Shown here: positions 27,001-51,000 of the stretch, one piece after another | How positions within the stretch are numbered: the first letter of the stretch is position 1 | Layout of the letters: each line of letters begins with the position of its first letter | NCBI GenBank assembly: GCA_028715415.1 | Contig: JAQURX010000002.1 | Location: 119,144-183,143 of the forward strand | Direction: 5' to 3' | DNA: 64,000 nucleotides | DNA from: Candidatus Omnitrophota bacterium | Lineage (GTDB): Bacteria; Omnitrophota; Gorgyraeia; Gygaellales; Profunditerraquicolaceae | Position numbers and translations under genes: made by a program | The notes under the pieces: model-generated | What the model saw: only the letters and a program-made list of their open reading frames with translations | Database searches by the model: none | What the model was told of the DNA's origin: nothing

Positions 27001-30000
27001 TAAGAGGTATGGCTGAGGGTGTAGATTTAGGAGAAGATGGCACAGGCAAGGTATTGGGCCTTGCTGGCGAGATATCCGGTTTATTTGAAGTAGTAATTAA
27101 AAGAGGAAGCACTTTAGAGAAAATAGCTTTAGGAGAACTAGAACAGATAAATAGGATAGTTTCTGATAAAACCGGAGTTGTTAAAGAATTTGACGCAGTT
27201 TCAAACAATACAGTTTATGAATTTAAATTTCATCTTTCTCTACGCAAGCTTTATCAACAGGTAATTGGAATTGATTCATGGCGGACACCTCATCTTGAAG
27301 TGCTTACGGATGTTAGGGAATTCAGTGGGGTACGAAATCTGGTTTATTTTGGAGAAACAGACGGCGGCAATGTTATTAAGGCTTTAAAAGAATTTATCCG
27401 AAACAATCCTGAAGTTTTACCACAATTTAATCTTACCGAAACTGGAATTTCAGTTAAATTAAATCTTGAACAGGTAAAAGAATTTCTTTTTTCCGATTCT
27501 ATAATCATGTTAGCAGGGGAAGAAGAATACCAGGGAAGATTTGCAGGATCTTTTGTTGATTATAAACGCCATCATGAATATACAGAAAAGCTTATTAGCA
27601 GAAAAATTAAGCAACTAAGAGGAGAAAAGTTTGACGTTATTATCGCAGTAGGCAATGTTAAACCGAAAGATTTAGAGCAGATTAAGGAAATGTCCAGAAC
27701 TAGACAACAAGAAGCTAAGCCAATAGATTCAAATGTGCTCATTAATAATTCTTATATAGCTATTCCAGTCGATACTCTGGCTAGTCCTTGTGGAGTTAAT
27801 GGCCCTATTTCTAATACAGAGTTCTCTGCGAATCTTCTATTCCAAGAAGTATATGGAGGTTCTTGCTATGAAAGCTCGCTTTGCTATAGCCAGACTCCTA
27901 TTGACCCTCAAATTATTACAGAAAACGCACAATTTATGTCAGATGCTAAGCTGACTTTTGAAGAAAAAGTAGATAAATTATTCGATCTTTTATGTACTGC
28001 ATTTATTCGGCCCGAATATGAGGCAGTTAAGCCTTTGCATCCGGGCTTGTGTTTCCGGTTAGCTGGATTTGTAGCTATATATTTTGCTGCAGCCGGCTAT
28101 TATGCATACAGGGTTAAGCAGAATGGACAAAACTTTGCAATTGTCTATGATATTGTTTCAAAGCGATATCATCTTATTGATTTTTCTGCAGCCCAATTTG
28201 TTTTAGGAGATGCCTTTGGGCATAATTATGGAGATAAATATAGGGCTTCTTATTTAGAATTAGCTACTGCCAATCCTTTTGTAGCCAATCGTCTCGGAAA
28301 ATATGCAAAAAATGGAAAGAGCAACTCTGTTTTATCCTGCTGCGCTCCTTTGGCTATGGCTTTTAGCAGCAACTTTGGTTTAACTAAAACAGTATTAGAA
28401 GCTGTAGGAATATTAGTTGCGGGGTTCATAGTATTATTTATTCTTTTCTACATATTCGCAGATAGTTCCATGAAAGAAGATCAAGCAGCAGGGAAGGGAA
28501 AACACCCGGATACTTATGAAAGAATTATTAATGTCTTAGATGGAATTGTTAATGCGATTCCCCGGGTTATTCAAGGTAAGGAAGGTATATCATTTTCTGA
28601 AACCTTAAAAGAAAAAGTTTGCATTGTCATTACACAAGAGAGAAATATGGCAAGCATTTTGGCAGCACGCAAAAAAATATGGCTTAAAGTGAATCCCGAA
28701 TTTGCCAGATATTTAAATAATAGCGCGCTTGCTTTTATGCTGGGACATGAGATGGCCGAAGCATGTGACTTGAATAGCACTTCGCGATATTTTCTCGATG
28801 TCGCAAGATCATTCTTGTGGCGTATTGCCAACTTGCTTATATTGTTTTCTCCTTTTGGTTTAATATTTATAGTTATTTCTCCCGGCTATTCTTCTGAGTT
28901 CTTTGCTATTTTGGTATTTAGTATAATACTCCGTCAAGCAATTAAATACTCCATGTATAAAAAAGAATTCAAGGCGGATAGTTTGGGGTATCTTTTCATG
29001 AAAAATGCCGGTTTTGATGCAAACGGAGCAAGAGATTTCTTTGAGGTTTATTCCAAATGTAAAATCAAATGGAATATTTATTCAATATTAGGCCTATTGC
29101 TCTTTTGGCATCATCCAACGATTAAAGCAAGGATCAAAAGCTTAGAAAGAAAACAAAAAATAGGCAGCTTAGTATTGCCGTCTTTGTTGTTTGTCTGCGC
29201 TCTTGGCTTGCTTTTCCTCAGCGGCTGCGGTACATCTCCGCATCATACAGCCTATACCATTCAAATTAATTCAATTATTGCTGGCCTTGGTTTATCGCAG
29301 TTAGGGTTTACTTCGCCATTTACGCATGTAGTTAATTTAGTCGGAATTGGATTATTATTGTCCGTATTTGCTTTTATGGTTTCGTCTAATTTACTTAGCA
29401 CTAGGGAGAGGAGTTTGGGAAGCGTAATTAACAGAGCTTTAAAGATAGGATTGCCTACAGATAGGGAAATTAGTGTTTTAGAGAGGCAACAAGAAGCCTC
29501 GATGCCGACATTGGATGATCTGTTGAGTGCTAAAGTAAGTAATCCGGTTGAAAGAACAGCATGGAAGAGAGCCTGTAATAAATTTATTGATGAAATGAAG
29601 CCTAGCAAAAAGAACAAGAGAGAATTTCGCGAGATCGTTGACGACTTTCCTTTTTATAAAAAACAGCTGTTATCGAGGCAAGTATTTATCAATAGATACC
29701 TTTCTTTGTTGATAAATGAAGCGAATGACTTAAAGTCGCTAAAGATAGCTTTTAGTCTTGTGGAGAATTATATGAGAAGTTTTAATGATTCAAATTATCT
29801 TAATTGTATGTTTGCTCATCAAGAATCTTGTAGCTTCATATTAGTTTTTCAGAGATTGGTTAATGCGGCTAAGAGTGCCGAGCAATTGAAAGTCTGGGCT
29901 TCTCTTGTTAATTATTTTATGAAGAAAATCTGCCGTTCGGAACATTTTGTTTTAAGCCTTTCAGTTTTAGCCAGGAAACTGAGAGATAAAGATATCAAAT

Positions 30001-33000
30001 TGCTTAGAGCTTACGCAGATCTAATTATGAGATACCTTAGGGAGAGCGATGATCCTATAAATAGTGTTCAGAGCCTTTTGGAGTTTCCCGAAGCTGTGCT
30101 TGATTTGGCAGTGTTAAATGCAGAGGTATTTTATGCGCCTGCAGAATTATGTTATCGCAGATACGATGAATTTACCGGTAGATATGTAAATGTTTTTGAT
30201 AAAGATGATTTTGAAAAAGAAGTAAAGTCAGGACGGGTAATAGATATAGGAGGGAAGTACTATTTTCCAATTAAAAATCCCTTCATTCCTTATGACAATG
30301 TTCATAATCGTGCCTTGCTTTATAATTCTCGAGGAGTGGACATCGTATACAAAGGAGCAGGTGCATCAGCAAGAATTGTAAAGCACGGATTAATTCTTAA
30401 CTTTAGCCATGACAAGAGCCCGCATATATTATATGGTGGGCTTCCTTCGTCCGAGGCAACCATAGATGTTGATGTTTCATTTAGAAAGGCTTACCAACAG
30501 CTTAAGGCTGAAGAAGACCCGGGGTTACTGCTTGCTGAAAGAAATGGCGCTCGTATCGATATGTATAGAAAACCGATAGCTATGGCAAGGCTTGAAGCAT
30601 TTCCTGTGGTTGTGCCGAATGGTAGCGTTAACGAAAAACAAGCCAAAGAATTATTAAAACATGCGGTTAATAAACCTGATTCACTTGGCCTACCGGAAAC
30701 TGTGAAGCTCATATTGGCGCAGCACTTCCTTAATTTTATAGGAATCCCTAAAGACAGCAAAGAAGAAAGGGATCCTACAGAATATATTTATAGTGTTCCG
30801 GTAAACCGGAGATATCAGGAAATGGATTCTCTGAAAGCTTACGGTCCGGTTTTTGAGTATTATGGTTATAAAGTTAAGTTTGATCGCAAGAAAGGAAGAA
30901 TCTATGCCAAGAACAAGCAAGGCAAGACTGTTGATTTCTCTTCGGTCAGGCGGCAAGTCGTAATTTCTGCTGCTGTCAGGTATGCCTTATTTTTGCGTAT
31001 TTTGCATAAGAAGTTTAATGGCTGCGGGTTTAATAAATATGGTTCGGTTTTTAGTGAGCATAACTGCAATCCTATCACAATATTTGATTATGATGTTATT
31101 AGATATAACGAATTAACCAAAGAAACCCGCGAAGGTGATTTAGGACAAGCAGAGGAGGCGTTGGCTAGGCTACATCTATTATATACAAGCGCTTTTCTTG
31201 GAGAAAAACGTGGTGATGATGAAGATGAATTATATGAGGATAAGTGGGCGAGCAAAAGAATTTTTGATGGAATATATAACGCTCCAATGGATAAAGGGAC
31301 CGTTTCTCAAGCTGAAGCTAAAAGTGCCCCCCTTACAGATAGGAGGAACACTTCTCCGAACGGCCCAAGAACCGGTCTCCGAACAGCTCAAGAACCGGTT
31401 TCTAAGGTTGTGGCTTTATTGCTTATGCTCGGGCTTTGCCTTGCGCAGTTAGGATTTACTTCGCCATTTACGCATATTCTTAATGTAACCGGTGTTGGCC
31501 TTATTATTCTTGGGCTAATTCTTGTTTTTTCCGGGCAATCTTTTGCGCAAAGCAATAGCAGTGCCTCATCCAATAGACGCCTTTTACAAGTCAGGAAGAT
31601 TGCAAATGTACTTAAAGATTTGAGATATCCGAAAGAAGGCATTAAAGATATTCTTCGTAAAATCACTCCTCTGGTTTCAGAAGTTAATCAGGCGAGGATT
31701 AATCTTAGTTGTGAAGATGATGGCCAACTTAAATCTGAGCTTAAGCGTTTGGTCGAGATTCTTAGATCCAATACCCATACAAGTTGGCTGCAATTAAACT
31801 TAATAAATGACTTAGTTGGTTTTGATATTTTTAAGGAGATAGATGGCTCAGTAGAGAAAGGTAATTCCGAAGAAGCAATGCGTAGAAAAGCGACTATGTT
31901 GGGGTGCGTGCCTCTTTCTCAGTTAATGTATGTAATTTTAAAATCATGCGGCTTGGAAGTATATGGAGCCATGACAATGAAACATGCATTTGCTTTAGTG
32001 CTTTTGGAAGATGGAGAAAAAGGCCTAGCAATTGACCTTCTTTTTGGCGTAGTAAGGAAAATTAATTTAAGTAAATATTATAACTACAATAAGGATACCA
32101 GAAGTTATATCCTTAAGCCTAAATTTGTGATGGCGGAAGAGGAAATTGAGGAGTTTAGAAAGAGTTTGGGGGAGGGTGAAATTAATCCTGAGAAATTATC
32201 TTCCTCTGAAAAAATAGGCTTTTTAAATTTAGTATGCCCATATTTCCAATTAACGAATTCTACCGGTTTATCTGCCGCTATTTATACTAACTCTGGGAAT
32301 GTTACTATAAAGTATGGCCTTGAGAAAGTCCCCTTTCAATCAGGTGGTTATTCCAGAGGGCAAGAATGTTTTTGTTTTTATGAACTGGCAAAGAACCTTG
32401 ATTTAATAAACGCTTTTAATAATTACAATCGTGGGCTTGCGGCTATGCATTTTGAAGATATGGAAGTCGCCCTTGATGCTTTTCAGCTTGTAATAGATGC
32501 TTTTCCTTGTTTTGAACCTGCTGTCGAAGCCTTTGAAAGAGTAGAAGAAAAACTTCAAGTAGAAGAAAATCTTCGTAATGGCGGAGATTTCTTTTCAGCG
32601 ATGGATTTTAATTCTTTTTGGGGGAATAGCTGTATTATTTCCCCGTATTTAATTTTATCTTCTTTAGGATTCAGATGTGGGATTGGTTCGCAGCAAACAG
32701 GCATTATCGAATCTCTCTGGTCAACGGGTCCGCTGTGGATGGTTGCACTAATGGTATTTTCTTTTGTTACATATCTATTCTTTGCAGGATCTTCGGGTGC
32801 ATTAACGAGGAACAATGCTCGTTCAAACGAAGAATCATTTGGCGTCATATTGGGATACGACTATGAGCGGTCAGTTATAAAGCCGTTATCACGCCAGTTG
32901 CAACAGCTTGCCCAAAATAAACTTAAACCTGTATTGACTATTAATGAAAAAGGATTAGCCGTAGCTGATTGGGTAAGCGATAAATTTAGAGAATACATTG

Positions 33001-36000
33001 TTTCCCGCAGCCATTCCATTCTTGCTCTATATAATGAGCTTATGCAGGCATTAAAGGAGAAAGGTTTTGCTCCGGCAACGGTTATAGTTCATTCTTCTTA
33101 TATCGTAGCAACAGAGGCTGAAACTTTTCTCGAACCAGAGTTAACCCTAGATACTTATGCTTGGGATAAACACGATAAAATTTATAATCTTTTACCTGAA
33201 CTCGCAGGGGGAGAAGAAATAGTTAGTTTTAGGGATTCAGAAGGCAGCCTTCATTTGCCTTTTGGGTATTTTATGCCCGATACAGGTTTTGCATTAACTA
33301 AATTAATGATGGCTGAGGCGAGTTTGGGCGCTTTAGCCAAGGACACAGCAGAATTAGAAGCATGCGCTCTTAATCATACTTACGAGGAGCTTTTTAATGG
33401 AAAAGATTTTACTTTTAAGCGTGATGATATTGGAGGAGATATTGACAAAAGCAGGATTTTGCCATTTTTAGCTTTAAAATATCATTTTGAAATCTTTTTG
33501 CGCAAAGTCTATGAGATCAGGAAATATCTTGAAGAAGGAGATCTTACAAACTTAACTATACTAAAAGAAGAAATGATTCAATTTATGGCTACGACAATTG
33601 GCGATTGTGGTTTGGATGAGAAGCAAATAGCTGAAAATTGGATAATAGATAAAGAAGTGACAGATGCAGTGCATAATTTTATTATTTCAGCCCGCGTAAA
33701 GAATGCAGGTGAACTTAAGCTTTCGGTAATTAACTCTGCTTTGCTTAACTTCTTTGCGTTTTTGTCTTTAAATGAATCCCCGCGAATTCCCGAGAATATT
33801 TCAGCCACAGATTTTAGTAAAACAACCGAGTTAGCAGCCCTAAAAAGCCATATTTTACAACGACAGGTAACAAAAGAACAACTCTTAAGGGAGCTTTTTA
33901 AGAGGAAGGTGGTTTATATTCTTGATGAAAAAAGGATGCGAGGCATCGCGGAGTTGTTAGGGGAGGTCCCTAATAATACCATGGTAGTTTTTCATGGTTT
34001 TTACTATGCGCTTAATTGCGGTTCTGGTATTGATGAGGAAAAAGTTAATCAGTCATTAAATGACTATCTTCAGAATGGGGATAATAAGTGCTTGGACGTT
34101 CCTTCATCTTTACAATGGGATGAAATTGCATGTGCAGCTTCAAGTTCTCTTAAAAAGGCTTTTGATTATTTGCATCAGCGCAATAGACGAGGCGCTAATA
34201 TAACTTATCATACTGATTTATCCGATTATTTATTCCAGACTATTAATAGTGTTACAGTTCCTTTTGGGGATAGGATAAGTAATTTTACAAATATTTTAGC
34301 TCAAAGTGCTCAGACAAGAAAAGCAGAGCATATATTAATACTCGGCAGCCGAAGGATGTTCCCGATGGACGAAGATTTCTTGAAACCGAGCAGGAACAAG
34401 CAAGGGCCGGTTGTTGAAAGATTAATTGAGGTTTTTGGAAGAGATAATGTAGCTTTAGCCTTAAATCTAATTTGTGTTGATTCAGAAGAAAACATTATTT
34501 CCCGTGCAATTTGGGGGAGTAGTTTAACTTCTTTTGCTTTAAGAGGGCCTTTGCCAGAAACTATACTTCCTGCGCCTATTTGGGATAAGGTTGGAGAAAA
34601 ATATATTTTTGGTAATTTCCCACAAGGTATTTTTGTCACTGCAGTTAAATCTGATGATGGCGATGATCGCAAGCCCGAGCCTGTAGCTCCAGATCCCGAG
34701 CCTGTAGGCGAGGATGCTCCTGTTGGGGATCTAGTTTTGGCGTGCCACACCTTGCCGGTAGTATTGTTATTAGGTTTATTAGGCCTTGGCGGATGCGGGG
34801 TCGTCTCTCATCATGCGTCCTACGTCCTTCAACAGGATTTAACTGTTGAATCCTGTTGGGCGACGGGGACGTTGTGGGTTGTTTTTGTCATGCTTTTTGC
34901 TGTGTCGATGATGTTTGCAGTGCCGGGAAATAATGGCCAATTAGGCAGAGTAAGTGGTAGTTTAAGTCTAGCCCATGCTTTAAGGTGCTCGTCAAGTTTA
35001 TATAGGTATAATGTGTCGGCAGGGGATATACCAGCTCAAGCTAAAGATAAAAGGCTATATTGGGAAAGAAAGATACAAGAGGCCCGAGACAGAAGTGATA
35101 GAAGTGGTTGGCAAGCGCTCACCACATTAAGCAGGTTAAATCATATGGAGTTATGGGCAAATTTAATAATAGATAGGGAGACCACCAGAGGATTATTGAT
35201 CTTCGGAGAAAGCACAAGTGGTAAATCAACAATTACTTCTTTGATGCTGGGTCTTAATCCAAAAAGTAAAGACGTTGGTTTAAGCAATCGTTGGATTCTG
35301 GGAGTAGATGATTTAGCTCAAGGATTCTTTGTAAAAGATAATTTGATAGCCGGGATGAAGCCTTCTTGTGATGGTAGGAATAGATGCAATTTAGAGGTGC
35401 CAGTAGAAGCAAAGCCTCTTTTTGTAGTTGTTGGCATGGTTGTGTTTTTAAATTTAAGATTCGTTCAAAAAGAGCCCATACTAAAAACAAGATTGACACA
35501 TATCCTTAGGGAAATGCACGAATCAAGTTATTTTGCTTTGACAGAAGATTTTTATAGAACACTCCCAATATTGCCTTTATTTGAGGCCCGGGTTTTAGAT
35601 AATTGTGGGCGTAGATGTGATTATCCATCTTTGGCTAAAACAATCGAAAAGACTTGGTTACAAGTTCCCGCAGTGGGGAATGCGACATCGAAAAGGTTAG
35701 CTTTGCTTAATTCTGATGCAGGGAGAAATCACTGGAACGCAACATTTTATTCCGTATTACCCATTATTTTATTCCCGCTAAGCCATTTGCAGATCCAAGA
35801 GCTAATTGAATCCCTCTGGTCAACCGGACCGCTGTGGGTGGTGGTAATATTATTGATTTGCACATTATTCTTCGCAAGCCCAAGCAGTAACAGTTTCCCC
35901 TTTAAGTCCGAAACAGTTTCTAAGAGGAAATTCTATGTAATATTAGAAGAGCATAATAGTATTCGCCTGCCTCCGGAATTAGCAAATAAAATCCTTCTTC

Positions 36001-39000
36001 TGTATCTGACTACACAAGATAGAGCATTAGTTTTTTCAGAGAATCGGAATCTTTTGCCGGATAAAGACTGGGTAAAAGTTGTTGCGGTTGCAGAAGAAGG
36101 CAGAATTTATCTTGATAAGAATTTAGTAAAAGGCCTGGATATAAGCGAAGAAAACGAAATCCCTCTTGTTTATTTAGAAGATAATAGCCCTAAAGATTTT
36201 GCACAACCTCTGCCTATTCGAAGTGCAGATAAGCCGGTTGAGAAAGAAAAGTTTTCCATCAGGCGTCTTGTGTATGGACAACTTTTGGAGTGGACTGAGA
36301 ATTTGATGGTAGAAGATACGCAGTATCAGAAAGTAAGCTCGCCGAGTAGAGGGGGAGAGGAAAATACTGTTTATATTTTTGTAATTGAAAATAGCACTCC
36401 TGAGAAAATAGCCGGCCATGTACAAGTTGTAATCAGAAATAATGACAAATCGTTTGAACGCGGCAGTAACTGGGTGCATCCTTCGCGGGAAGATAAGGCA
36501 AGCATAGAAGAAAAGTTGGATGCGGCTTACAATAATTTTGTTAAAGAGTGGCCGACAATGATGGCAGGGAAGTTAATAAAAATGTTCCTGCGCACGAGCT
36601 GTTTAATTGTATTTGCGTTATTCGCGCTTCTCTATTTAGGCGGATGCGATTTGTTTGTCCTTAGCTCACATCCTACGGAAGCCGACTCTTGGGCATTTGG
36701 TGGGCATTTATGGAGATTATTGCTGGCATCATTACTCGCAGGCGGGTTTAGTTTTGCGGGGATTCATTATGGTTTTGGCAGTGCAAGCGCGAATTCCGCA
36801 AAGCCAACCGTGGTTCATATTATGAGTAATCTTGGGCGAGGTGGAGCGGAAAGAAATACTTTGAATCTGGTAGCAGGATTGAATAAGCAATTGTTCAAAA
36901 TTATCCTTCTTGTCTGCTCTGATAATTCAGAGTATCCCGAAGAGATAAATGAAGCTATAAACGAATACGGAGTAGAAATCCGCTATTTGCCTGAAATGGC
37001 AAAACGAAGAAAACTACCTAAGGGGATTTCTTATATATATCACCGAATATATAGAGTAGTTTATTTATCCAATGTTTTAAAGAAGATAAATCCGGATATT
37101 GTGCATACCCATTGTTTCCATATGGGATTTTTAGGAGGAGTGGCTGCAAGGTTAGCCGGTATAAAAATAATAGTCTCAACCCCTCATTCTGAGCCTCCCA
37201 AGTGGCGTTATTCCTCACAAGGCAAGAATAAAGCAAGTTTGGCTTTTATGGATAGAATAATCGCCCGCGTTAGCCATTTCATCATAGCTATATCACATAT
37301 TGAAGAAAGCCGGCGCAGAGAACAAGATTTTAACAGAGTCGCAGTAACAACAATTTATCATGGTATTGACCATAATAAATTCCTAAAAGATAGTTCAGTT
37401 AAGGTTAGAAATGAATTGCAAATTGATTCTAATGCTATTGTAGTGGGTACAGTTGCTAATTTGTTTGAAGTTAAGGGTTATCCTTATTTGATTCAAGCCG
37501 CAAGGGAAGTGGTTAATAAATTTCCAAAAACAGTTTTCCTTATTGTCGGCGAAGGCGATATGCGTAAAATCCTAATGCAACAGGTGGAGAGTTTGGGGCT
37601 AAAAGAAAATGTTAAATTTTTGGGGCGCCGTGAAGACATCCCCGAAATTCTTTCAGCTATTGATTTGTTTGTTCTGCCTTCTTTAAGCGAGGCATTCGGT
37701 ATCGCAATTATGGAGGCAATGATTGTCTCAAAACCTGTAGTCGCCACTAAAGTAGGCGGGATCCCTGAATTGGTTGTTGATGGTAAAACGGGGATTTTAG
37801 TGCCGAACAAAAATTCTTCTGCATTAGCAGATGCGATTTGCTTCCTCTTAAAAGATAGAAAGAAAATGCAGGAAATGGGGCAAGCCGGAAGAAAACGGAT
37901 TATTGAAGGATTCTTATTGAGCCGCATGGCTAAGAAATACGAAGCAGTATATTTAGGCTTACTAAATGCAAGAGCACAGAAATTGCCGATTACACCGGGT
38001 GTATACACATTTGGGAATAATGGAAAATTTTCGCCGGATAATCATTACTCAACTATACCTAAAGCCTGCGGGTTAGGGATTTATGAAGGTGGAAGAATTA
38101 AGCCGGATGTTGTGCTTCAGGCGGAAAGTAAAATCGCAAACGCAACTACAGCAAAACTATTAACCAGATATCAAGATTGTCCTGAACTTGGCCCTCAGTT
38201 AATTGAGCTAGTCCAGGGAATTTTAGGCAGGCATAATAATCTTTATGTAATTAATGATGATCAACCATTTATTTGGCATAACGGCAACAGGTTCTTATTT
38301 AGTTATGTAAAAGGGCACGATATCCATCTTACATTAGGGTTTATTAAAACAATTATCGCTGTAAATAAAATGAATCTTTTTGCTACGTTATTAGAATTTG
38401 AAAAGATGAATATTGAAGTTAAAAATGAAGATATTGAGCAGGCAGAGAAATTAGCCAGAGAAATTCTTCATGTTGTTCTATCTCATGCTATTTTCTGGAC
38501 AAGCCCCATTGCAGCTTTGGTTACAAAAGGACAGTCCCACGCAGTATCTGAATTGATAAATAAGGTTAAAAAAGATGGCGCGCATATCTATGCTGCGGAT
38601 ACAAATGGAGAATTGGCAGAAGCTGTTTTAGGAAAAGTTCCTGAAGTAAGCGGGCAAGCCTGGCGCGTGCACGCTTTGGATTTAGGAACACAGTTTTATC
38701 TTTATGATGATGGTAGGGATTTTAGAGTTTATGGATATGTTTATTTGGATCCCGAAAAAGCCAAGGAGCATCTTCGTTATCCGCATATCATAATTACGAA
38801 AGCATTATGGGAGAGGTTTAAAGAAGGTAAGATTGATCTAATTGAACCGGTTTGTTTGACTTTGCATGCGGTTTTTGCAGAGAAAAAGTGCGATGCAAGA
38901 GTAAAAATAGAAATTGATATAAAAGAGGATGCTCTCCCGATAGGGGAATTCTTAAAAGAAGTACAGCTAGATCATCCTGCAGATGACGTTGTCCGGGAAG

Positions 39001-42000
39001 AAGAAAAACAAGAGTCTGTGACACCTACTGTTGTAGCCGAGGCTATTGAAGAGAAGCCTCAAGTTGCCTGTGAAGCATTAGGAATAGTGGTTGTGGGGGT
39101 TAAGATTATTAATGATTTAATCTATGGCCGAAGAAGGATATCTTTAGAGTTTAAGAGAACAGGGGTGGTTAAGGATGAGGAAGGCCAAGAGGAAGAAGGT
39201 GACGTTCCTCAGAAAGGCGAGCTTAGAAGTGTTGAATTAATTGTGGATGACCCGGAATTTAAAAACAAAAAAGAAAACAAAGAAAAGATCTGGCGGCCAA
39301 ATGAACCGATTACCGAGTTTTTTAGTAATAAGACAACATTTGATAGTAAAAGATTGCTTGCTGCTTTTGCCGATCGCGAAGAAGTCTCAAAAGAATTTAT
39401 GACTCATTCAAGTATATGGCAGAAACTACTTGCTTCGCCAGTTGTAAATATATTGCCTAAGAAATGGAAGAGCCTGCTTGTTTCAATCATGTTATTAGTG
39501 TTAGGGCTTACTTCAACTGGAAATGCTCAAGGCTTAAATTCTTCAATCCCAGGATCTTCTTGGCCCGGATATTTTATTCTTGTAACCGTTTTGCTTGCGA
39601 TAGCTTTATTGTGTGTTAAGCCATTATGGGCAAATGAGCCAAGAGAAGGTTTTAAAAAAGAAGATGAAATTAGTTTGGGGCTTCGTATCAAAAGAGCATT
39701 GCAAGAACGCAAACAGGAGGAATTCAATGATATTTGGATTAATTTGCGAAGGCGAGGATCAAAAGAGAGCCAGATTGTACAGAATCTCCTTAATTCTCAT
39801 TATATAGATATTGATTCGCTCTTTACTTTTTTTGTGTGGTCATTGGGAGAGGTGCATATTAATGTAAAAATACAGGAAGGCCTCAAGAAAATTAGAAAGG
39901 AAGCTGTTTATGATTATATTAAAGAGTTCTACCTGCCTCCTGTAATTAATGGTCTTTTGCCATTCACATTCTTGTCCCCTATAAGGTTCATAAGCCTAAT
40001 TGAGAGGTATCTTAAATATGTTGAAGAAATCTTATCCTCGGATGATCAATATATGGAGCAGTTATTTATTGATGCACTTGATTACATGATTACCTTTTCG
40101 AGTATGGGCAGAGGGTTTTGCCCTTCGAACCCCTTAGTTGAAGATGTAAGGCGGATAAAATTGCAGTATATCAAAGAAATGATTATATTTGTAAGTACAG
40201 CATGTAAAGGGAACGGAAGAAACTTAACGGAAATTTTTCAAGAGTTAGTTGAATTGATTATCGCAATCGAAAAAGTAGAAGACATTGGTTTACTCCAAGA
40301 GATAAATGATATTGTGAATAATATAAGGAAGCTATTTGCATTAAATGATGAGCGTAATACATTTGACCCGCACCGTGCAAAATTTGAGATGCATCCGGAT
40401 GAAGAGCAGGTTGAAGGAGATATGAGCAGGTGTAATGAAGATGTTGTGAAAGATGGATATATTCTTGGTGCGGTTAACGAAGCTATTGAACGGGTGGCTG
40501 ATAAAGATAATAATGTAAAGGCTGCTTTAGAGCAAATCCGCGACACAATTGTTATCCGTGCAGGCCCCGGCCTTACCTATATATGGGCTACATACCGCAA
40601 TAATATCTTCTACATAGACAAAGACCTGCTTAGCAACCAATACTTACGTTTTGAACTCCTAGTTACACTTATTCACGAAGCAAGAAAAATCGCTTATCCT
40701 GAAGCAAAAGACCATGAAAATGAAGTATTTGCGCAAGAATGCGTGAATTGGTTGCGTGAAGCCATAGGGATTGAATTGATTGTTAAGGATCATGGTGCAC
40801 ACAGAGAAATAGGCCAGGATGGTAAATTGCGTTTTGTAAATGGTAGGTTTGAAGATATTATCCCTAGTCTGCCGGAATATGCCGCGCACGGTGTTACCGC
40901 CATTATGTTTCCGGACGTTAATAAACATGCTCCGCAAAGCGTCTTTGAGATTATTGATCCTTTTGAAGTTAATCCCGATTGCGGAACCAAAGAAGATTTA
41001 AAGAGGCTTCTTGATGTTGCGCATAGTTATGGGATTAAGGTGATATTCCCTGCTATCTTAAATCACGTTTCTTTTGAAAGCGAGCTTTATTTAAAGGCAC
41101 AAACAAGCGGCGATAAAAGTTTCTTTATTACAGATGCAGACGGCCAGATTGTGAAGGCGACGGATAGGCGAGAAAAAGGTGAGTATTTCTGGACATTTGA
41201 TGCAGCTCAATTAAATTTAACGCATCCCGAAGTAAGAAAGTATCTTTTAGATGTTGTGAGGTATTGGATTAGCTTTGGTTTTGATGGGCTTTGGCTTGAT
41301 GCGGCAAGCGCTTTATTAAAGAAAAATGTTAAGAGGAATTGGCAGGATTTACTAAGAGGGGTGGATAACATTGAAAGAAATATGCCGGATGAATTTATCC
41401 CTGAAATAATTAGAACCATCCGGGAAGTCAAATTATCGGCAAGGGTTATGGCCGAGTGTTACGATGTTTTTGACCGACCAGATATGGAAGCAATGGGTGT
41501 TGATTTAACCATGGATTTTGAGGCAATTGAAGCGATTGTACAGTGTTATACTCGTAACAAAGATAACTATCCTTATTTCCTGAGAAAACTTTTAGAGGAA
41601 GATGCAGTAAGGCCGGAGCATGAAAGAATTAGGTTTGACCGTAGGCATTTTGCCCGTGTTAACCATGATAAATTGGAGTTTTGGAATCGCCAGGGGACAT
41701 TAAATAATTACGAGGCTATTTTTACCCATAGTATTCTAGGCGCTTTAGGCAGTTCACTCTGGCTTTGTGAGGGAGAGTTTGAAGGTAGAGGTTATCGTTA
41801 TGATAGGATGGGGGTAGTTCCGCTTGGAGATACATTTAAGAGAGAAAAATTAGGGGATTTCTTAAGGCGCTTATTGCCTATTATTAATCAGCCTGTATTT
41901 AAACACGGAAAATATCATTATCTTTGGCCAAATGCCCGTAACCCTGATTGGTCTCCGGTATGCGCCTTCGTCAGAGTGTATAAAGATGAAATCGTAATTA

Positions 42001-45000
42001 TAGCAGCTAATGTTCCGACTCATCCTGGTGATAAAGAAGTTGGCTGGGCGAATTTTGATATCAGTTGGTTAATAAAGAATAAAGAAGGTTTTTATAAAAC
42101 CGAAAATTTATTTACAAGAGATACTTATGCCTTGGCAATATACCCACTTAGGGAAACATCAGATCCTAATCGGAAGTTTTTCCTCACTGTTGCTGTAATG
42201 CCAGGTGAGGTACAGTATCTGAAGGTTATCAGAGTTGAGCCTCCTCACGATATTTCCGCCTTTAGCGCATATCGCGACAGTGTTATTGCTTTTATATTAG
42301 GCAGCGCCTTAATCTATTTTATTTATTCTTCACTTGGATTCTATCCTGCTTTGGCAGTTGGCTTAGTCGTTCTTTGGGCAACAGTGCAGTTTTATATTAT
42401 TGGCCGTTCAACCTTTGAGGTAGTATCTGGTGAGTTGTTTTCAAGAATCTCAAAAATTGAGGTTGCCGATACGATAGATATACCCGGGAAGAGGCCTAAA
42501 TTCATTCCCGAACAAGATGCGATAAGGATGTCTCGAAAGCAGGCTTTACATAAGCCAATAGCTACAAGTAATGGATTTGTCTGGCAACAGGCTTTTGATG
42601 GATTGCATCCAATCATCCAAAAATGGATTTTGATCCATGAAACTGGAAGGTTACATCTTTCAGGGATGCTGAAAATTATCCCGCGGGTAGACATCCCGAT
42701 AGTTTGGTTATTCGGATACTTAAAGGAACAGACAAGAAATTGGTATAAACAAGAGCTCGCTTCTGCGGAGAAGGAAATATTAGATAATGTTTTTGAAAAA
42801 GCTAACAATTTTGATTCTAGATCAATTCAACCGCTAATTAAATTAGGGGCTTATTTCCGCTTGATTAGTTTTGTCGCTTCGGAAGTTTTTGAATTAAGCG
42901 TGATTATAGGAGCGGTGATTTTATTTAAAATATCATGGCCTATAGCAATTGTGTTATTTGCAATGCTTGCTATCTTTGGCTATTCCTTCGGAGGTATATG
43001 CCGGGAAATCACAACTTTTATCTGGGCAAAGCAAAATCCCGATGTGCGTTTTAATATTATTAAACGCTGGGCTTGGTTTACGATCCCCGGAACAAATATC
43101 TTCGTGATTAAGCCGGTATTATGGCAAATAAATAAAAATATGCGTTCAGATTTATCCGCTGATGGCGATTCTGAACTTACCAGAGAAATTGTAGATCGAA
43201 TTATCGCAAATTCTTCAAAATCCCGCGTCGAAAAGATTGAGGAAGTTAATATTATATTTACTATTCGGGCCTTCTTTGAAGAAGGGCATGATCCAGATAA
43301 GAGTAGCCGCGCGTTTATTTACGGAAGGATTGCCTGTTTATTAAGAAAAACAAAGACAGAGGTTTATGTTTTAAATAATTCTCCGCATTCAGGATATTGG
43401 CAGGTATCAGCTTTAGGTGCAGGGGAGCATTTGTTAAAAATATTTATACGTCAAGATGAAGATGTTAGAGCTAAAGCTATCCATGAGACGGCAGCTGCAC
43501 TTACTGCTATTTCCGGATATCCTACTTCGCATGAAACAAATTTAGAAATTGAAAATGAATATCTGTATTGGCATAAGACTATCCAGATTTGCCATCATGA
43601 AAATCATTTTGAGGAATTTATCTTTACAGAACATGCTTTAAACGAGATTTTAGGATACGAAAAAGGAAAAATAGACTTTGCTGGTGATAACTTAAAAGGA
43701 ATTAATCCTAATCTTTTAGTCTTTATTGGTTTCTTTGCAGGGGTATTTATCATAACCGAATTCGGCGGTTTCCCACTTGGGAAATTCGTTAAGTTTATAA
43801 TCAAAATATTACCAACTATACTTTTGCCTGTTTGGTTGGTTATGTTTTCGCCTTGGTTATATAAATTTTTTAGGAATGATAACCAGCTGCCGCCTAATGA
43901 TTCCGATCTTTCGGCTGAAGGACCGAATTTGATTACTGTATCAGAGAGAGATAAGTTGGTTGAATTAATGAATAGCAAAGGTGCTGGCTATTATAGAGTT
44001 TCTTATAATGGCGAAAAAGATTCAATTGTGGTTGATAGGGTTAACTATAAACAGGAAAGAAGGATTTATGGGAATGATAGATTTTATGATAGTGAGGCGT
44101 TTCAGGTGGTGCGAAATGCTTTAAAGATGGCTTATGAAGTAGTTAGAAAAAATGCTAATGAATATCCGGAAGTCCAGGAAGCGGTAGAAAATTTGCAAAT
44201 TTATCTGATAAATGAATTGCCCCAACATAAAAAAATTAAGATTGGAGAAGAAGGAGAAGTGATGTTTTTGGCGAAAACAAAACAAGGCCAAGATAGGCGA
44301 GTTTGGGTAACTCGGCTGGATGATAAAGCGATCCTGACAACCGAACTGCTTTTTAGTTTATTGGATGATTGCCGCAATAAGGATCATTGGCAAGGTAAAG
44401 GGTATATTCCGGAAAATATGGCTGTTGTAATGCTGGCAGGGGATATTGTTCATGAATTAGTTTGTAGTAATGAAGTTTTAGTGCAGCGATTACAGCCTGA
44501 TGCTAAGGTTGGTGTTAAGGGGTATGGAGAGTATGCACATCTTGAAGGTTTAAAAGCAGAATTAGATGTCCTTAAGTTTGCTAAAGATAAAAAATGCTTG
44601 CCTGAGAAGAATATTAAGAGTTTGTCTTCAGATATGATGGAAGCAATTAAGTCCGCCGAAAAAAGCATTAAAGTTAATCAGGGTAGGGATATTGATTTGC
44701 AAAGTGACAGCGGTTATATAGAAGCCAAAGAAAATTGTGGAGTTTCCGAGGAATCTATTAGGGAATTTGAGGAAGAGGCTCTCCAAATTTTGGAATCCAA
44801 TAGTTCTGATTCAGTGTTTTGGGGAATAAATACCCGGGTTTGGGATTCACATAGAATGTTAATTATACCAGTTATAGATAGTTATAATATTGAAGTCGGA
44901 CAAGAAATAGCAGTTGGAGCTGGAATTGCGGTAAATGTAATGAATATTTTTACATATTGGAAACAGGCTTGCCGTAATTTTATAAGTAAAATAGATAACG

Positions 45001-48000
45001 GAATTAAATTAGCAGTAGACGATATAGAGAAAATAGTTTTTGAACTGGGTTGCAATATCCACAAATACGGAGATAAAGGCATAATTACTTTAAGGATAAT
45101 ATATTTAGAAGACAGGATTGCAGGGGTTGAGATTGTTGCAAGGGATGTGGGAAAAGGTATTGGTGATGTTGAGCTAAAGAGGAGAAGTGCTTTTAGTGAG
45201 GTTAGTTTGAATATTGGCGAAGGAAATGGATTAAGGACTATTATTGGGTATCCTGAACCATCAATTTTTTCCAGAGAAGGCGAAGTCGTTTATGAAACAG
45301 GCGATGGCAGTATCGGCCGCAAATTTATTTATGACTCTGGTAAAAATGAATTCGTGGAATTTCCGGAAGGAAGCAGTATCAAGCAAGGTACTCGCGTCAG
45401 ATTAACGCTAATTAAAGGAAATCCCGGGAGTACTTTATTAGGTATTGTATTTTTGCCAATTTTTGCGTCTCCATCGTTTACTTTTCTAGTAAGTGTGGCA
45501 GCAATTGTCTTATGCGTAGCTATGCTTTTACTTCTTCCGCTAATAAGAAATACCTTGAGCGCTATAAAATCGAAAAATCCTTTATATAAAAATAAGTTAG
45601 AACTTGAAGCGCAGATTGCCGAAAAGGTAAGGGTTTTGTTTGGAAAAAAGATTTCATTCAAGGCCCTATTTAGTAGAAAATCAATTTCAGTTGAGCGGGC
45701 TCGTAGAGGATTTAGTAATTTTACAGTTAAGAATATTACCGATAAAGGGGAAGAATATCAGAAACTTCGGAGTTTGGTTAAGTTATTAGCGCAAAACTAT
45801 GAAGAAATAAGCGCGGCATCAGAAAAGAAGAAGGAAAAGAAGAAATACCTTAAGGCAGCGCTTGTTTTGTATGAGTTGCTTATGCTTTCTACCCCGGATT
45901 TTATTGAAAAGCATCATTTTTGCATTAAATCAGCTGATTGCCATAAATTATTAGGGGACAGAGTTGGCGAGAACACTTATACGCATGCAGCATACGGGAT
46001 GCTCCAATCAGCTAAAGATAATCCTCAATTTGCTGAATTAGAAAAACAGGTTTTATCCAGAATACATTCTGATAATCATCCTGTTCCGGAGCAAAGCCAT
46101 ATAGGCATAGATTCTATGGGCCCAGAAGAGTATGTTTTTGGGATAGGTGTAAGAATGACAGAAACAGCCGATGGAAAATTAGGGTTGATTTGTGATTTTG
46201 ATAGAAATATCCCAGTGGATAGATACGAGGCAATTTCACAATATTTAATTGGCCTATCGAAATGCTATGGCGTGGGGATATTGATTAATTTAAACAGGGT
46301 TGAAATTTGGCGTAATTTAAGCACCAAGTCAGCAGGCGACTTTGCTTTAGGTACTATGCGTTTAGATGAAAGATTATTGAATCCAGAGGCAAGGCCTATT
46401 TTATGGGAAACCATTTTCCATGAAGTGATGACAAGCCTGTTAGTGTTGATTGAGCCAAATCGCGGGGTGCGCGAAGCTGTAGCAACAAATTTAAGCATTA
46501 AGCATTATTTAAATCCGAAAGAATTTATTTTTGGTTCGCAGAATGCCCTGGAAGATACTTTACGATATCGCAGGAATTTTATTGTAGCATTAAACTCCGG
46601 AATCTTTGAAGTTGCTCAGCCGCTTCGTGAGTTATACGGCAGCATAGAAGCTGCTTCCGGTAATGAGTTCGTAAATATTAAAGTATTTGAGAGTATTAGA
46701 AGCCAGCCACGTTATAGCCTGGAAAAAGATAAGTTGGAAGAAATTGAGAAACAAGGCGATCCATATGAAATAGTCCAGAATTCAGTTAATTTAATGAATT
46801 GGTTCTTGGAACAAGTCAATACTGTTGATTTTGTCTGGAGATATATAACTAAAGGCCAAGCAGGAAAAGATAATATCCTTAATATTATTAACGCGTCTAA
46901 TAATGATAATCCTGTGACGGTATGGAACTTAATAGTTTCGTCGCTAATAGCAAAAAGATTTACTCAAAGCAGAAGAATGGATCAAAATGGATTAATTATT
47001 GCAAACGCGATAATTGTATTAGCCCGAGTTTATGAACGCAGAATTATATTAGAAATGAAGAAAACTATAAGCTATGAGGAGCTTTTATATTTGTCTTTAA
47101 TATTAAATGAGCAGGGCCCTGTTAAGACTGACCTTCAATTCTGGGCTTTGGAAAGAGGAGCGTTTAAAGATGTCACTGTAGCTATAGAAAAAATTGCAAA
47201 TTTAAGGGGTAAGTTGGAAATTCCCGAAGTCAGATTCTATAGGCGGTTACCAGCTTTAATAGAATTTGCTTTAGCGCCGAATACAGTAGTCCCTGAAGGG
47301 GCGCATTTGGTTGTAAGTGGATATGGCGATAGGTTAAGAAAGGTACGAAATGCACAAAAACTCACTAAACAAGAAGTCAGTTTTTTAACCGGTGGAAAAG
47401 TTGATGCCGGGCGTATTAAAAGATGGGAAACGGAAAGAGTTTTGCCTCAGATGGATTTGTTAAAAATAGTAACCGATGCATTAGGTGTGCCTTTAATCCA
47501 CATAACAGATAATGCAGGAGATGTGGATTGGGATATCTTGAGATTGCGAGCGAATCGCGCTCCAAGAATAAGAAAGGTAAGGGAATTATTTGGGTTTAAG
47601 CCTATTTATGTTGCCAAGGCTTTAGGTTCAAATGTCGGGGATTATGTGTTGAGGCTTGAAGAAGGGGAAATTTACCCTAGCTTAGAAGTCATTACAAAAT
47701 TAGTTTCAGTATTTAGAGATGAAGTGAGTGCAGAATATTTCTTGGTAGGCACAAACGAGCCTGATTGGACAAAAATAGGTGTTGTTGATGGATGGGAAGA
47801 GCGGATTAAAAATGTTATAAAACAACTTGATTTGAATGTTGTAAAGCTATATCTAACAAGTCATATTGATGATCAGCGTTTTAAACAAATGATGCAGGGG
47901 GTTCTCAGGCCTTCTGTTTTAGAGATGGAGAGAATTGCTGGATATTGTTGTATTCCTCCTGAATATTTGATAAAAGGCACAAATGAACCGGATTGGAGTT

Positions 48001-51000
48001 TGTTTGCATATATATTACCCGGATATGGAATGCGTATTCGTGATTTAAGAGAAAAAAATATGCTTAAGTCTTGTGAATTAGCGGAGGTAGTTGGAGTTGG
48101 TGATGATACTATTTGTGATTGGGAATTTGAGAGAAAAATTCCTTTAGATGAAAATATTACTAAATTATCTAACGTATTAAAAGTTGATAGAATGTATATT
48201 TTAAAGGCGCTAAATCCTCCAGATTGGGATAATTATGGAGTAAAGCCTGGCTATGGCGGGAGAATTTCCAAAGCAAGATTAAAACAAGGATATTTTATTA
48301 GAAATTTAGCAAAGTTAGCAGGATATTCTCAGAATACAATAATTGGGTTAGAGAATGAGGATATTGGGCTTAGCCCATTTATATCAGAGGTTCTTGCAGA
48401 AGTATTGGGAGTTACAGTTGATTACCTTGCGCGTGATAAGAATCCTCCGGACTGGGATAATTTTGGCATTACCAAAGGCTATGGCAAGAGGATTAGGCGA
48501 GCTAGGTTGGCTAAAGGGTTGGCTCAATGTGAATTAGGTAGAAGTATAGGTTTATCAGTTAGTAGGGTTGCGGCTTGGGAGAAAGAAGAGATTGAATGTC
48601 CGACACACGAAGCATTAGAGCGGTTTGCTAAAGCTTTGGATGTGCCGATTGAGTATTTAAAGAATGGGCAAAATGCGCCAACGTGGATAAAAGAATATAA
48701 GTCAAAAGGTGCAATCGCAGGATATGGCGCGAGAATATATAAAACAAGAATAAGAAATGGTTACACAATTGAATACTTATCAATATTAACAGGCATTGAC
48801 CTCCAGACATTATTGTATCTTGAGTTAGAAAGAAGAGATAGGGTTATACCAAGAAGAAATATTTTAAGTAAAATTGCAAATGCATTAGGCGTATCTGTGG
48901 AATATATTCAGCGATCTCAAAATCCTCCGGATTGGAAAACTTTCGGAATTATTAATGGCTATGGTAGAAGAATTAGAAAAGCACGAATGGCATTAAGAAT
49001 GAGTGGGGAAGAATTGGGATTAAGAATGAATATAACAAAAAGCAATGTTTACCAATGGGAGAGTAGAGAATGGGTGGCTGGTTGTCCTATACATGAAAAA
49101 TTGGTAGCTTTTGCTTCTGCCTTAGGGGTTTCATCAGAGTATATACGAAGAGCTACAGATGAACCAGATTGGGAAACCTTCGGTATTTCTCAGGCCAGCA
49201 GCATCCTTATTGGAATCCAGCGGGAAAACAAAGGCATGAGCCGGAAAGATTTAGCGGAAAGAATCAAGGTCAATGAAAAACAAATAGCCGAATGGGAAAA
49301 CAGATATTGCCAAGACCTGCCTACATACACTAATTTTAGGCTTATGGCCGAAGCGATGAAAGTGGATATTGAAACGTTAATCCATCTTCCAAAACTTGAA
49401 GAAGCAATCGGGTTAATTGATAGCCTAATTTATAAAGGCATGCATTTAAGCGCGAAATTGTTGTTGGAGTGTTGTGTTGATACATATGGATTATATACAA
49501 ATAAAGAGTTTTCTCATTATTACGTAAAGGATATTGAAAAGAAGCTGTCCAGAGATTTGAGTGAAAAGAAGAATTATTTGATCTCCCTGGGAGTAGAAAT
49601 AAATGATGAATTATTAAATAAGCCTTTACATGTTCTGGAATATCATATTGACCAGACAATTCTTTTGCCGCTTCTAAACGGAAACGGAGAATTTGATAGG
49701 CAATTGATTATGCCGCTTTTTATTTCGGAAACACTAGATGAGTATTGCCCACGCTCAACTGCATTTAGGAGTTTAGCGCGTTTGGCAGAAATTCAACCTA
49801 AAAGGCTTGCGGATAGATTTCTAACGTTATTGCAATTACCAAGTGGAAACGGCCATGGCAACCTGCCGCGAGATTTACTAAGATTTCTTAATACGCCTTC
49901 AGGAGGGGTGTTAATTAATGCTTTGCAGAAAGAAGGAGATGGGTTGGCGAGTTTTATAGAAACGCACAGAATATTAACTGAAAAAAGCAGTTTAGCTCAT
50001 GTTTTGCAAATCCAAGACCAGGCAGGGAATGGAGAGAAAGACCACAAAAAAGTAGATTCTGCTATAAAGATGTTAAGAAATGAAGGAAAGGTGAGAAAGG
50101 CAAAAGCTTCAGAAGTTGAAAGTAACGAATCTGAGAAAAAGTTTGCCGAAGAAACCATCGGCCTTGTTTTGGATAAACCAGTGCATTGGCATACCATTAA
50201 CGCTATCCCGAGAGAATTTCCATTTGGCGGGCATATACATCAATGCAAGAATCATTACGATATTTATATACGAAAGGATCTTTTGAAATCAGGAAAAGCA
50301 GCGCACGAAGTTACGGCCGGGCTTTTGAGAGATTGCAGCCCGGGAAGAGTGCATTCTGCTGCCTGTAGTGTAGAAAACGCATTCCGCAGTAAATCAAAAG
50401 ATTTATCTGAGCCCCGCGGAGAAAACAAAGAAGACTCTTTAACTTTCTCCGAATTAAAGATTAAGCAGCGGAATTATCGTTCGAATCCGCACCAGCCTTA
50501 TTGGTTTTTAGAAGTTGAGCATCCGCATTTTTATGCAACAACCGCGGTTTGCGGGATAGATTTTCTCCCTCCTGATTTACAACCGGCTTGCGGAGGAGTG
50601 GTGTTTAAAAGTATTAAAGGTTGTGATTTGAATAATGTAGCTCTGCGCAGAAGATCGCAGAAAGAAGCCGGGTATCTTGCTCAGGAAGCAGACCGTACTT
50701 CAGCTAGATATAACGGATACTCCCGCGGTGTCGCAACAGTGGTTGTCTCAGATGGAGAAATAAGCAAGAAGAAAGTTTTGATAGAATTATCACGGGCTTT
50801 TGCATCCAGAAAACTTTTAGGTTGGAGATGCATTGCCGCTCCCAGTTTAGGCACTACAGAAGAAGATAGTAATATTATTTCAGATACAGCATATGAGACT
50901 TCTTTACGTGAGTATTTAAAAAATTCAAGAGTTAATTATGTGACAAAAAGAAAGATAGAAAAGATTATTAGGGAGAAAAAATGGAATGAGATTGACCGTG

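Follow-up and report, generated by a model that had tools for sequence, protein, structure and literature searches.

Open reading frames (ORFs) of more than 20 kb are common in Omnitrophota (PMC10066038). Among the giant proteins of this phylum, the Archaeovorins have been defined by glycosyl transferases, methyltransferases, glycosyl hydrolases and peptidases (West-Roberts et al. 2023, bioRxiv 10.1101/2023.11.21.568195), and for a 'multi-enzyme metabolic' class PF00534 has been reported in 127 of 916 long proteins (bioRxiv 10.64898/2026.06.07.730766). The second of these preprints also lists receiver and signal peptidase II domains, and gives 46% as transmembrane-only and cytoplasm-facing. 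We have analysed a stretch of 64,000 nucleotides from a Candidatus Omnitrophota bacterium (GenBank assembly GCA_028715415.1, contig JAQURX010000002.1, positions 119,144 to 183,143 of the forward strand), which we call the window. It is filled by one giant ORF that encodes, among other domains, a GT4 glycosyltransferase and a GH13 domain of the alpha-amylase family. The explanation that we favour, with moderate confidence, is an Omnitrophota-type membrane-tethered multi-enzyme protein that holds a competent GT4 and an altered GH13 on the cytoplasmic face, the two having become neighbours by accretion.

Giant multi-enzyme proteins combining glycosyltransferases with glycoside hydrolases are already described in Omnitrophota, and the window fits that class. 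Like the known Archaeovorins and multi-enzyme giants, the encoded chain is far longer than 10,000 residues (more than 21,332), has many transmembrane helices, and is a highly divergent mosaic of PF00534, glycoside hydrolase, methyltransferase, peptidase, receiver, signal peptidase II and TPR domains. It differs from them in containing PF00128, which is absent from the text of both giant-protein papers (bioRxiv 10.1101/2023.11.21.568195; 10.64898/2026.06.07.730766). SecA_DEAD, present in most full-length giants, gave no match within the 21,332 residues, searched in 1,000-residue pieces, of an ORF that runs past both window ends, nor did HEAT, NUDIX or C39.

The giant ORF lies in frame +3 (positions 3 to 63998, + strand) and continues uninterrupted for 21,332 codons, open at both ends of the window. 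In this frame, amino acid i begins at nucleotide 3i. The 21,332 codons include no stop of any type, compared with 691–2,286 in each of the other five frames, and the GC skew is positive throughout; recoding, a pseudogene and mis-assembly were ruled out on these grounds. Besides the giant frame, the window has two ORFs of at least 150 residues, both antisense (nt 37493–38008 and 16835–17359), which have no Pfam match and were deemed spurious. A hydropathy scan found 53 strongly hydrophobic 19-residue segments along the giant ORF, giving a membrane-punctuated chain. The original prediction, made from the letters of the window, had placed the GT4 and the GH13 together on such a chain about 2.9 kb apart, and this was borne out. 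Both domains are in the one stop-free frame, the GT4 ends at nt 37955 and the GH13 starts at nt 40800, a distance of 2.85 kb, and all of the motifs that it quoted are found at the positions claimed.

The GT4 domain (nt 36801–37955, + strand, aa 12267–12651) is a full-length glycosyltransferase of the GT-B fold, as seen with Pfam, NCBIfam and solved structures. With Pfam, both halves of the GT4 were matched, by Glyco_transf_4 (5.9e-19, aa ~12280–12458) and Glycos_transf_1 (8.1e-47, aa ~12469–12632). The best NCBIfam profile is TIGR03088 (stp2, PEP-CTERM/XrtA-associated GT4), with 1.4e-65 over profile positions 1–371 of 374; the glgA_Coryne profile gives 2.1e-38. The TIGR03088 score of 221.8 is below its equivalog cutoff of 409.05, and since the domain scores under every NCBIfam equivalog cutoff, no specific pathway can be assigned to it. 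The best solved relatives are BshA (2jjm, 4e-33) and GlgM (6tvp, 6.4e-26). The EX7E motif of retaining GT-B enzymes (nt 37689–37715, + strand) reads E12563-AFGIAIM-E12571, as part of EAFGIAIMEAM from aa 12563 (nt 37689), and the nucleotide-sugar-binding loop GGIPE is at aa 12585. Both motifs are in register with those of BshA 2jjm (seSFGlvllEAM...GGIPEvi), so that the GT4 call of the original prediction is upheld by motif alignment as well as by Pfam.

A homologue search with the GT4 returned 2,889 proteins at 1e-10 or better. The best are ordinary stand-alone cytoplasmic GT4s of ~370–400 residues, 33–38% identical over the full length, and none is a giant. Among the names that they carry at source are 'glycosyltransferase involved in cell wall biosynthesis', PelF, and PEP-CTERM/EpsH1-associated sugar transferase. 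The window GT4 thus shares with the stand-alone exopolysaccharide and cell-envelope GT4s (TIGR03088 stp2, EpsE, PelF, BshA) the two-Rossmann GT-B architecture, EX7E and GGIPE. However, it is fused between two transmembrane hairpins in a giant ORF instead of lying in a polysaccharide gene cluster. Judged by its sequence, it is probably a conventional Leloir-type enzyme of the exopolysaccharide/envelope kind, and we predict that it is active.

The GH13 domain (nt 40800–42257, + strand, aa 13600–14085) consists of a (beta/alpha)8 barrel and a C-terminal beta-sandwich. The PF00128 Alpha-amylase profile matches with 71.6 bits (1e-19; the gathering cutoff is 22), at aa ~13616–13850 and only at profile positions 18–275 of 446. 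Solved GH13 enzymes found by phmmer are TreS 5x7u, neopullulanase 1j0h and TVAII, at about 2e-17, and TIGR02456 (treS_nterm) matches at 3.4e-17. The sequence similarity to Pfam and PDB GH13 covers the N-terminal half of the domain and ends shortly past conserved region II; a search of PDB sequences with the C-terminal half alone found no solved GH13. Regions III and IV could be placed only via the profile of an Omnitrophota clade, described below. The AlphaFold model of aa 13590–14082 has a pTM of 0.83 and a mean pLDDT of 75. With this model, Foldseek matched TVAII 1wzl (5.5e-26) and neopullulanase 1j0h across barrel and C domain, with values from 5.5e-26 to 2.6e-25 and TMq 0.69–0.71. The GH13 call therefore stands, both on PF00128 and on the AlphaFold check that the original prediction had proposed, in which the model matches whole GH13 structures.

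An exhaustive representative search gave full-length relatives of the GH13 domain with 29–33% identity. Some are parts of proteins of 3,400–3,900 residues (P0035, P0036, P0038) and others are stand-alone proteins of ~480 residues (P0037, P0042–P0044, P0055); one stand-alone relative is from Margulisiibacteriota. A hidden Markov model (HMM) of this Omnitrophota/Margulisiibacteriota clade matches the window GH13 over its full length, with 238.8 bits and 3.9e-75, and the clade profile matches solved GH13 at 4.6e-39, spanning both halves. By sequence comparison, then, the module belongs to a small clade of the alpha-amylase family made up of Omnitrophota long proteins and ~480-residue stand-alones. 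Relatives of this domain and of a zincin-like domain next to it (the HEA domain, discussed below) are NCBI proteins from Candidatus Omnitrophota metagenome-assembled genomes (MAGs; P0031, P0032, P0034, P0036, P0047), one of which is annotated 'alpha-amylase family glycosyl hydrolase, partial'. These are the nearest relatives of both domains, in agreement with the attribution of the chain to an Omnitrophota type of giant. A word-indexed homologue search with the GH13 gave only ordinary GH13 proteins of ~500 residues, 23–35% identical over 20–62% of the query, and no giant relatives.

What is the state of the GH13 active site? Region I (PAILNH, nt 41049–41066, + strand, starting at aa 13683) keeps Asn 13687 and His 13688, and the usual Asp is replaced by Pro 13683. 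At this position the aligned relatives have Asp (153) or Glu (4) and in no case Pro, so that the window sequence departs from the motif DxxxNH. Region II (GFDGLWLDAA, nt 41277–41306, + strand, starting at aa 13759) keeps the nucleophile, Asp 13766. This residue is aligned to an invariant Asp column and lies at the end of beta4, directly after a predicted strand (173–176 of the AlphaFold model), and the ten-residue blocks around the strand have mean pLDDT values of 97 and 89. Two residues ahead of the nucleophile, however, is Trp 13764 (TGG, nt 41292–41294), where 162 of the 167 aligned relatives (~97%) have Arg. This Arg has been described as the fourth most invariant residue of GH13, after the catalytic triad (PMC8467227). 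In region III (AECYD, nt 41451–41465, + strand, from aa 13817), the acid/base Glu 13818 is in register: it occupies an invariant column in two alignments, it falls on predicted strand beta5, and the clade profile (flAEa) maps it to the Glu of GEiw/GEvw in solved GH13. The closest relatives (P0035–P0038, P0042–P0044) all keep the Asp, Arg, Glu and His-Asp, in DFIPNHVS, GFDGFRIDA, FLAEA and KDGHDIRD.

The candidate region IV, FARVNHD (nt 41649–41669, + strand, from aa 13883), contains His 13888 and Asp 13889, and a look-alike, FDRRH-F, is directly upstream of it (aa 13878–13883). Support for Asp 13889 comes from a second group of relatives, in which vHFl-ENHDEER aligns with rHFARVNHDKLE with a one-residue insertion, and a general alignment of GH13 agrees. 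A strand predicted at FAR in the AlphaFold model also fits the NHD reading, with pLDDT below 50 there. The gapless alignment with the clade HMM speaks against it, since this places Phe 13883 at the region IV Asp (vhfkDGHDiRd versus IRFDRRHFARV). The ambiguity of register arises because the segment at 41634–41669 is a quasi-duplicated unit of 15/18 nt, TTTGACCGTAGGCAT beside TTTGCCCGTGTTAACCAT, encoding FDRRH and FARVNH; this may be a small in-frame duplication. On balance we consider it likely that NHD is the genuine region IV.

These results divide the original claim that the catalytic residues are apparently intact. The nucleophile Asp and the Glu are kept, and so probably is the NHD Asp, but in the alignment of 167 relatives the machinery has lost the Arg (Trp 13764) and the region I Asp (Pro 13683). 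Compared with neopullulanase/TVAII (1j0h, 1wzl) and TreS (5x7u), the window GH13 has the same (beta/alpha)8 barrel and C domain, with TMq about 0.7. It also has the Asn-His of region I, the nucleophile Asp and the Glu of region III in common with them, and probably the His-Asp of region IV. It differs from them in the Trp in place of Arg two before the nucleophile, in the Pro in place of the region I Asp, and in its setting in a giant chain, with a zincin-like domain on one side and a transmembrane hairpin on the other. Its identity to solved GH13 structures is just 17–20%. Region V reads AAQLN and so has neither of the GH13 subfamily markers QPDLN and MPKLN. Thus, the domain is a GH13 homologue in which the triad is probably present, and as aligned its active-site scaffold is non-canonical in a manner unseen among all of the relatives retrieved. 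Because of the Arg to Trp and the region I Asp to Pro replacements, our prediction is a module that is weak or altered, or that binds glucan without catalysis, and not a standard amylase.

The same replacements could be read as decay. The GH13-like domain, and possibly other cargo of the chain, would then be a relic of in-frame gene fusions, in which the frame stays open but selection on individual modules is relaxed and they drift. The two near-invariant residues are lost in this GH13 copy only, a sequence search of the PDB does not recognise its C-terminal half, region IV is quasi-duplicated, and the zincin-like HEA domain has also lost its second zinc-binding His; furthermore, the domains of giants have been called highly divergent (bioRxiv 10.1101/2023.11.21.568195). 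Yet the clade HMM still matches the whole length of the GH13 with 238.8 bits, and the domain has a confident fold and retains its nucleophile Asp and its Glu. The frame runs through 64 kb without a frameshift or stop, and the HEA copies are 40–50% identical to each other, which argues for selection. We regard a decaying relic as quite improbable.

The original prediction had also taken the GT4 and GH13 for a pair with glycan-building and glycan-cleaving activities, and this was not supported. None of the six long Omnitrophota proteins with this type of GH13 (P0035, P0036, P0038, P0049, P0060, P0159) contains a GT4 of the window type at an E-value of 1e-3 or better, and the pair is therefore not conserved as a unit. 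In the window the two domains are ~950 residues apart, with other elements between them. Their divergence also differs: the GT4 is ~35% identical to thousands of stand-alone proteins, while the GH13 is at most ~33% identical to a handful.

The placement of the domains relative to the membrane was considered from the hairpins that bracket them, using a hydropathy scan. Hairpin H1 (nt 36597–36776, + strand, aa 12199–12258) is just upstream of the GT4, and has a basic N-flank, KLIKMFLR, and a loop, SSHPTEADSWAFGG, without Lys or Arg. Hairpin H2 (nt 39474–39629, + strand, aa 13158–13209), between the GT4 and the GH13, has a 21-residue loop, TSTGNAQGLNSSIPGSSWPGY, with no Lys or Arg, and flanks ILPKKWKS and KPLWANEPREGFKK. 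Hairpin H3 (nt 42282–42404, + strand, aa 14094–14134) follows right after the GH13 and has a loop of three residues, FYP. Over the window, the scan found 23 two-core clusters, and 13 of the 23, H1–H3 included, combine a Lys/Arg-free loop with basic flanks. By the positive-inside rule, Lys/Arg-free loops and Lys/Arg-rich flanks suggest in-out-in anchors with the large domains in the cytoplasm. Since a hairpin, H2, separates the GT4 from the GH13, the two should be on the same side of the membrane, and we infer that this side is probably cytoplasmic. Such a placement agrees with the cofactor needs of the nucleoside diphosphate (NDP)-sugar-, S-adenosylmethionine (SAM)-, FAD/NAD(P)H- and DNA-binding-type domains on the chain. 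Only local hairpins were used, because the scan of the whole ORF left too many ambiguous single segments.

A recurring hairpin motif was also seen elsewhere in the chain. It has a weakly hydrophobic first helix (..SCHAW.VLAL..), followed by (E)SLWSTGPLWVVV.., and occurs at aa ~5790–5831, 6850–6879, 10890–10929, 11610–11640 and 11915–11952 (window ~17370–35860). This suggests that the membrane anchors are a duplicated module.

GT4 (GT-B Leloir) enzymes require nucleotide-sugar donors, which are cytoplasmic, and the substrates of GH13 enzymes are alpha-glucans, not murein, pseudomurein or S-layers. For these reasons, neither domain points to attack on a prey wall. The model of the original prediction, in which both domains are displayed at the cell surface and digest or remodel the envelope of prey or host, is in line with published hypotheses: a 39,678-residue protein of V. 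archaeovorus is enriched in attached cells, and many of the domains of such giants are predicted to be extracellular (bioRxiv 10.1101/2023.11.21.568195; PMC10066038). The many transmembrane segments of the window chain would also suit it. However, besides the donor requirement of the GT4 and the alpha-glucan substrates of GH13, the hairpins have short, uncharged loops between basic flanks, which would put both domains inside, and cytoplasm-type domains (receiver, helix-turn-helix (HTH), FAD/NAD(P)H and SAM) share the chain. Furthermore, Pfam scans of the window found no lytic transglycosylase, lysozyme, adhesin or dockerin domain. We give little credence to surface display of this pair, and the surface role first proposed for it is not retained.

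Both domains could instead form a functional alpha-glucan module (glycogen, trehalose or maltose-1-phosphate) at the membrane's cytoplasmic face. In that case the GT4 would be glycogen-synthase- or GlgM-like and the GH13 TreS-, branching-enzyme- or neopullulanase-like, a storage glucan being synthesised and remodelled jointly with a GT35-like segment. The top GH13 matches are indeed TreS (also TIGR02456, 3.4e-17) and neopullulanase, and NHDKLEFW resembles the TreS-type region IV NHDELTLE. The GT4 matches GlgM 6tvp (6.4e-26) and glgA_Coryne (2.1e-38), but its best matches are of the exopolysaccharide type (TIGR03088 at 1.4e-65, BshA, EpsE, PelF) and not glucan synthases. Glycogen-synthase-like glycosyltransferases are frequent in such giants (bioRxiv 10.1101/2023.11.21.568195), and the chain has a PF00343 phosphorylase segment at aa 1216–1488 (4.2e-10); this match, however, is partial and 11,000 residues away. 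The GH13 copy lacks the Arg two before the nucleophile and the region I Asp, and GT4 and GH13 do not co-occur in the relatives. An alpha-glucan module is an unlikely explanation, though less so than surface display or a decaying relic.

Our preferred explanation is still the membrane-tethered, cytoplasm-facing multi-enzyme chain with an altered GH13, and several points weigh against it. The loss of the Arg is no proof that the GH13 is inactive, and the register of region IV is ambiguous. All of the collections searched, including GTDB genome contigs and JGI metagenome contigs, lack a homologue of this GH13 copy with more than ~33% identity, so that the Trp and Pro may be conserved and selected or may reflect recent decay. 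The topology comes from a crude, home-made scan of hydropathy, read with the positive-inside rule; several hydrophobic segments are single in the scan, so parity along the whole chain is not established, and the N-terminus, hence any signal peptide, lies outside the window. Finally, transmembrane predictions are unreliable or mutually discordant for giants, many of whose domains have been placed extracellularly (bioRxiv 10.1101/2023.11.21.568195; 10.64898/2026.06.07.730766).

How would the favoured arrangement work? Ordinary enzyme and regulator domains would be strung on one polypeptide, with in-out-in hairpins pinning the chain to the inner membrane and the large domains held on the cytoplasmic face. 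The GT4 would most likely use a nucleotide-sugar donor to add a sugar to an acceptor that is a polysaccharide or is lipid-linked, in keeping with the annotation of its stand-alone exopolysaccharide and envelope relatives. The GH13 would bind glucan or have weak or altered catalysis, in place of standard amylase activity. The two domains would be adjacent by accretion and uncoupled in function.

The GT4 is followed by a soluble stretch of ~490 residues (aa 12660–13150, nt 37980–39452, + strand) that has no Pfam or NCBIfam match, with an acidic/charged linker around aa 13040–13100. In the exhaustive search, no homologue covered aa 12883–13443. Past H2 there is a helical stretch, then the HEA domain of ~130 residues, and then the GH13 barrel. 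The first HEA copy (nt 40365–40751, + strand, aa 13455–13583) abuts the barrel and is zincin-like/M48-like, with HEARK replacing HExxH; copies 2 and 3 are at nt 57216–57671 (aa 19072–19223) and 60963–61367 (aa 20321–20455). In the representative search, the domain was found one to three times per entry in 13 related protein entries, most of them long, and the five entries whose names were looked up all come from Candidatus Omnitrophota MAGs. The copies are 28–51% identical to copy 1 of the window. Invariant or near-invariant motifs are D-x-H-R-A-K near the N-terminus, IRAGP, YLD, LIHEA and D..NE, and most copies lack the second HExxH His (HEARK, HEARV, HEAAV, HEAGV).

The HEA domain is predicted to have a zincin (M48-like) fold, and its AlphaFold model is confident (pLDDT 85). 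Searches of Pfam with all 20 copies, at E-values up to 1, gave no consistent family. The sole PDB sequence match is the M48 peptidase 3c37, with a non-significant E-value of 1.1, aligned exactly at the HE motif. The domain thus resembles M48/M56-type and mini-zincin peptidases (HtpX, BlaR1, BepA, selecase, deuterolysin) in the pattern ...LL...eL..tLiHE, which aligns to M48 3c37, but differs in lacking the second HExxH His, in having D-x-H-R-A-K and in having no Pfam family. A fixed module of an HEA domain followed by an enzyme was considered and ruled out as a strict rule, since the downstream content varies: GH13 or Methyltransf_23 follows at once, as does Bac_transf in P0031, GNAT follows ~450 residues on, or there is nothing recognisable. 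We speculate that the HEA domain could be a protease, of an atypical or degenerate kind, with a possible link to processing of the giant chain. A more elaborate arrangement, to which we assign a very low probability, is a cassette of a membrane-tethered cytoplasmic assembly line. In this, the HEA domain, as an M48-like zincin without the second zinc-binding His, would mark module boundaries for self-processing or docking, and the GH13, with a re-shaped −1 subsite, would not be an amylase but would trim, or bind, an alpha-linked polymer other than glucan that the neighbouring PelF/exopolysaccharide-like GT4 makes.

Other cargo domains found on the chain are two receivers, a GT35-like phosphorylase segment, SAM methyltransferases, an FAD/NAD(P)H oxidoreductase, an HTH array, an alpha/beta-hydrolase, signal peptidase II and M48. 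The receivers, with ~34% mutual identity, are at window 441–764 (aa 147–254, 1.8e-18) and 9081–9359 (aa 3027–3119, 3e-10), and the scans of the window showed no histidine-kinase domain. Two integral-membrane peptidase domains, signal peptidase II (Peptidase_A8, 2.1e-05, window 942–1328, aa 314–442) and Peptidase_M48 (2.4e-06, window 28710–29150, aa 9570–9716), could in principle process the giant protein. The GT35 glycogen/alpha-glucan phosphorylase match is at window 3648–4466 (aa 1216–1488) and is partial, with PF00343 at 4.2e-10 over profile positions 321–591 of 713 and TIGR02093 at 3.3e-08; it is a second alpha-glucan-related domain of the same ORF, far upstream of the GH13. A SAM-methyltransferase-like segment followed by Pyr_redox_2 (1.7e-42), a cytoplasm-type FAD/NAD(P)H enzyme, occupies window 25005–26366 (aa ~8335–8788).

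Downstream of the GH13, XRE-type HTH_3 domains are arrayed in tandem, at least five of them (PF01381, 1.7e-44; window 47232–49382, aa 15744–16460). Four stretches are in one 1,000-residue piece and one is upstream, with mutual identities of 25–38%. Such a DNA-binding array is odd in a membrane-tethered giant protein. Methyltransf_23 (1.3e-06, window 57786–58181, aa 19262–19393) begins ~40 residues past the second HEA copy, and an Abhydrolase_1 alpha/beta-hydrolase (6.8e-16) is at window 62868–63269 (aa 20956–21089). Large internal protein repeats, 36–74% identical and without Pfam assignment, flank the second and third HEA copies at window 55746–57137, 61365–62630 and 63498–63998 (aa 18582–19045, 20455–20876 and 21166–21332); for example, aa 20455–20550 and aa 21237–21332 are 74% identical.

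These results do not overturn current views, and the combination of domains is ordinary for the giant class of Omnitrophota. They do provide a concrete, checked example of cargo placement in one such giant, with a GT4 that appears intact and a GH13 that has diverged, each bracketed by hairpins. The loss of the Arg and of the Asp is a caution against equating the carbohydrate-active enzyme content of giant ORFs with activity. The recurrent zincin-like HEA domain is a candidate handle on the processing of giant proteins. For the giants in general, the question is whether the enzyme domains act on prey outside the cell or serve the cell's own metabolism within it, and the local hairpins here point inward.

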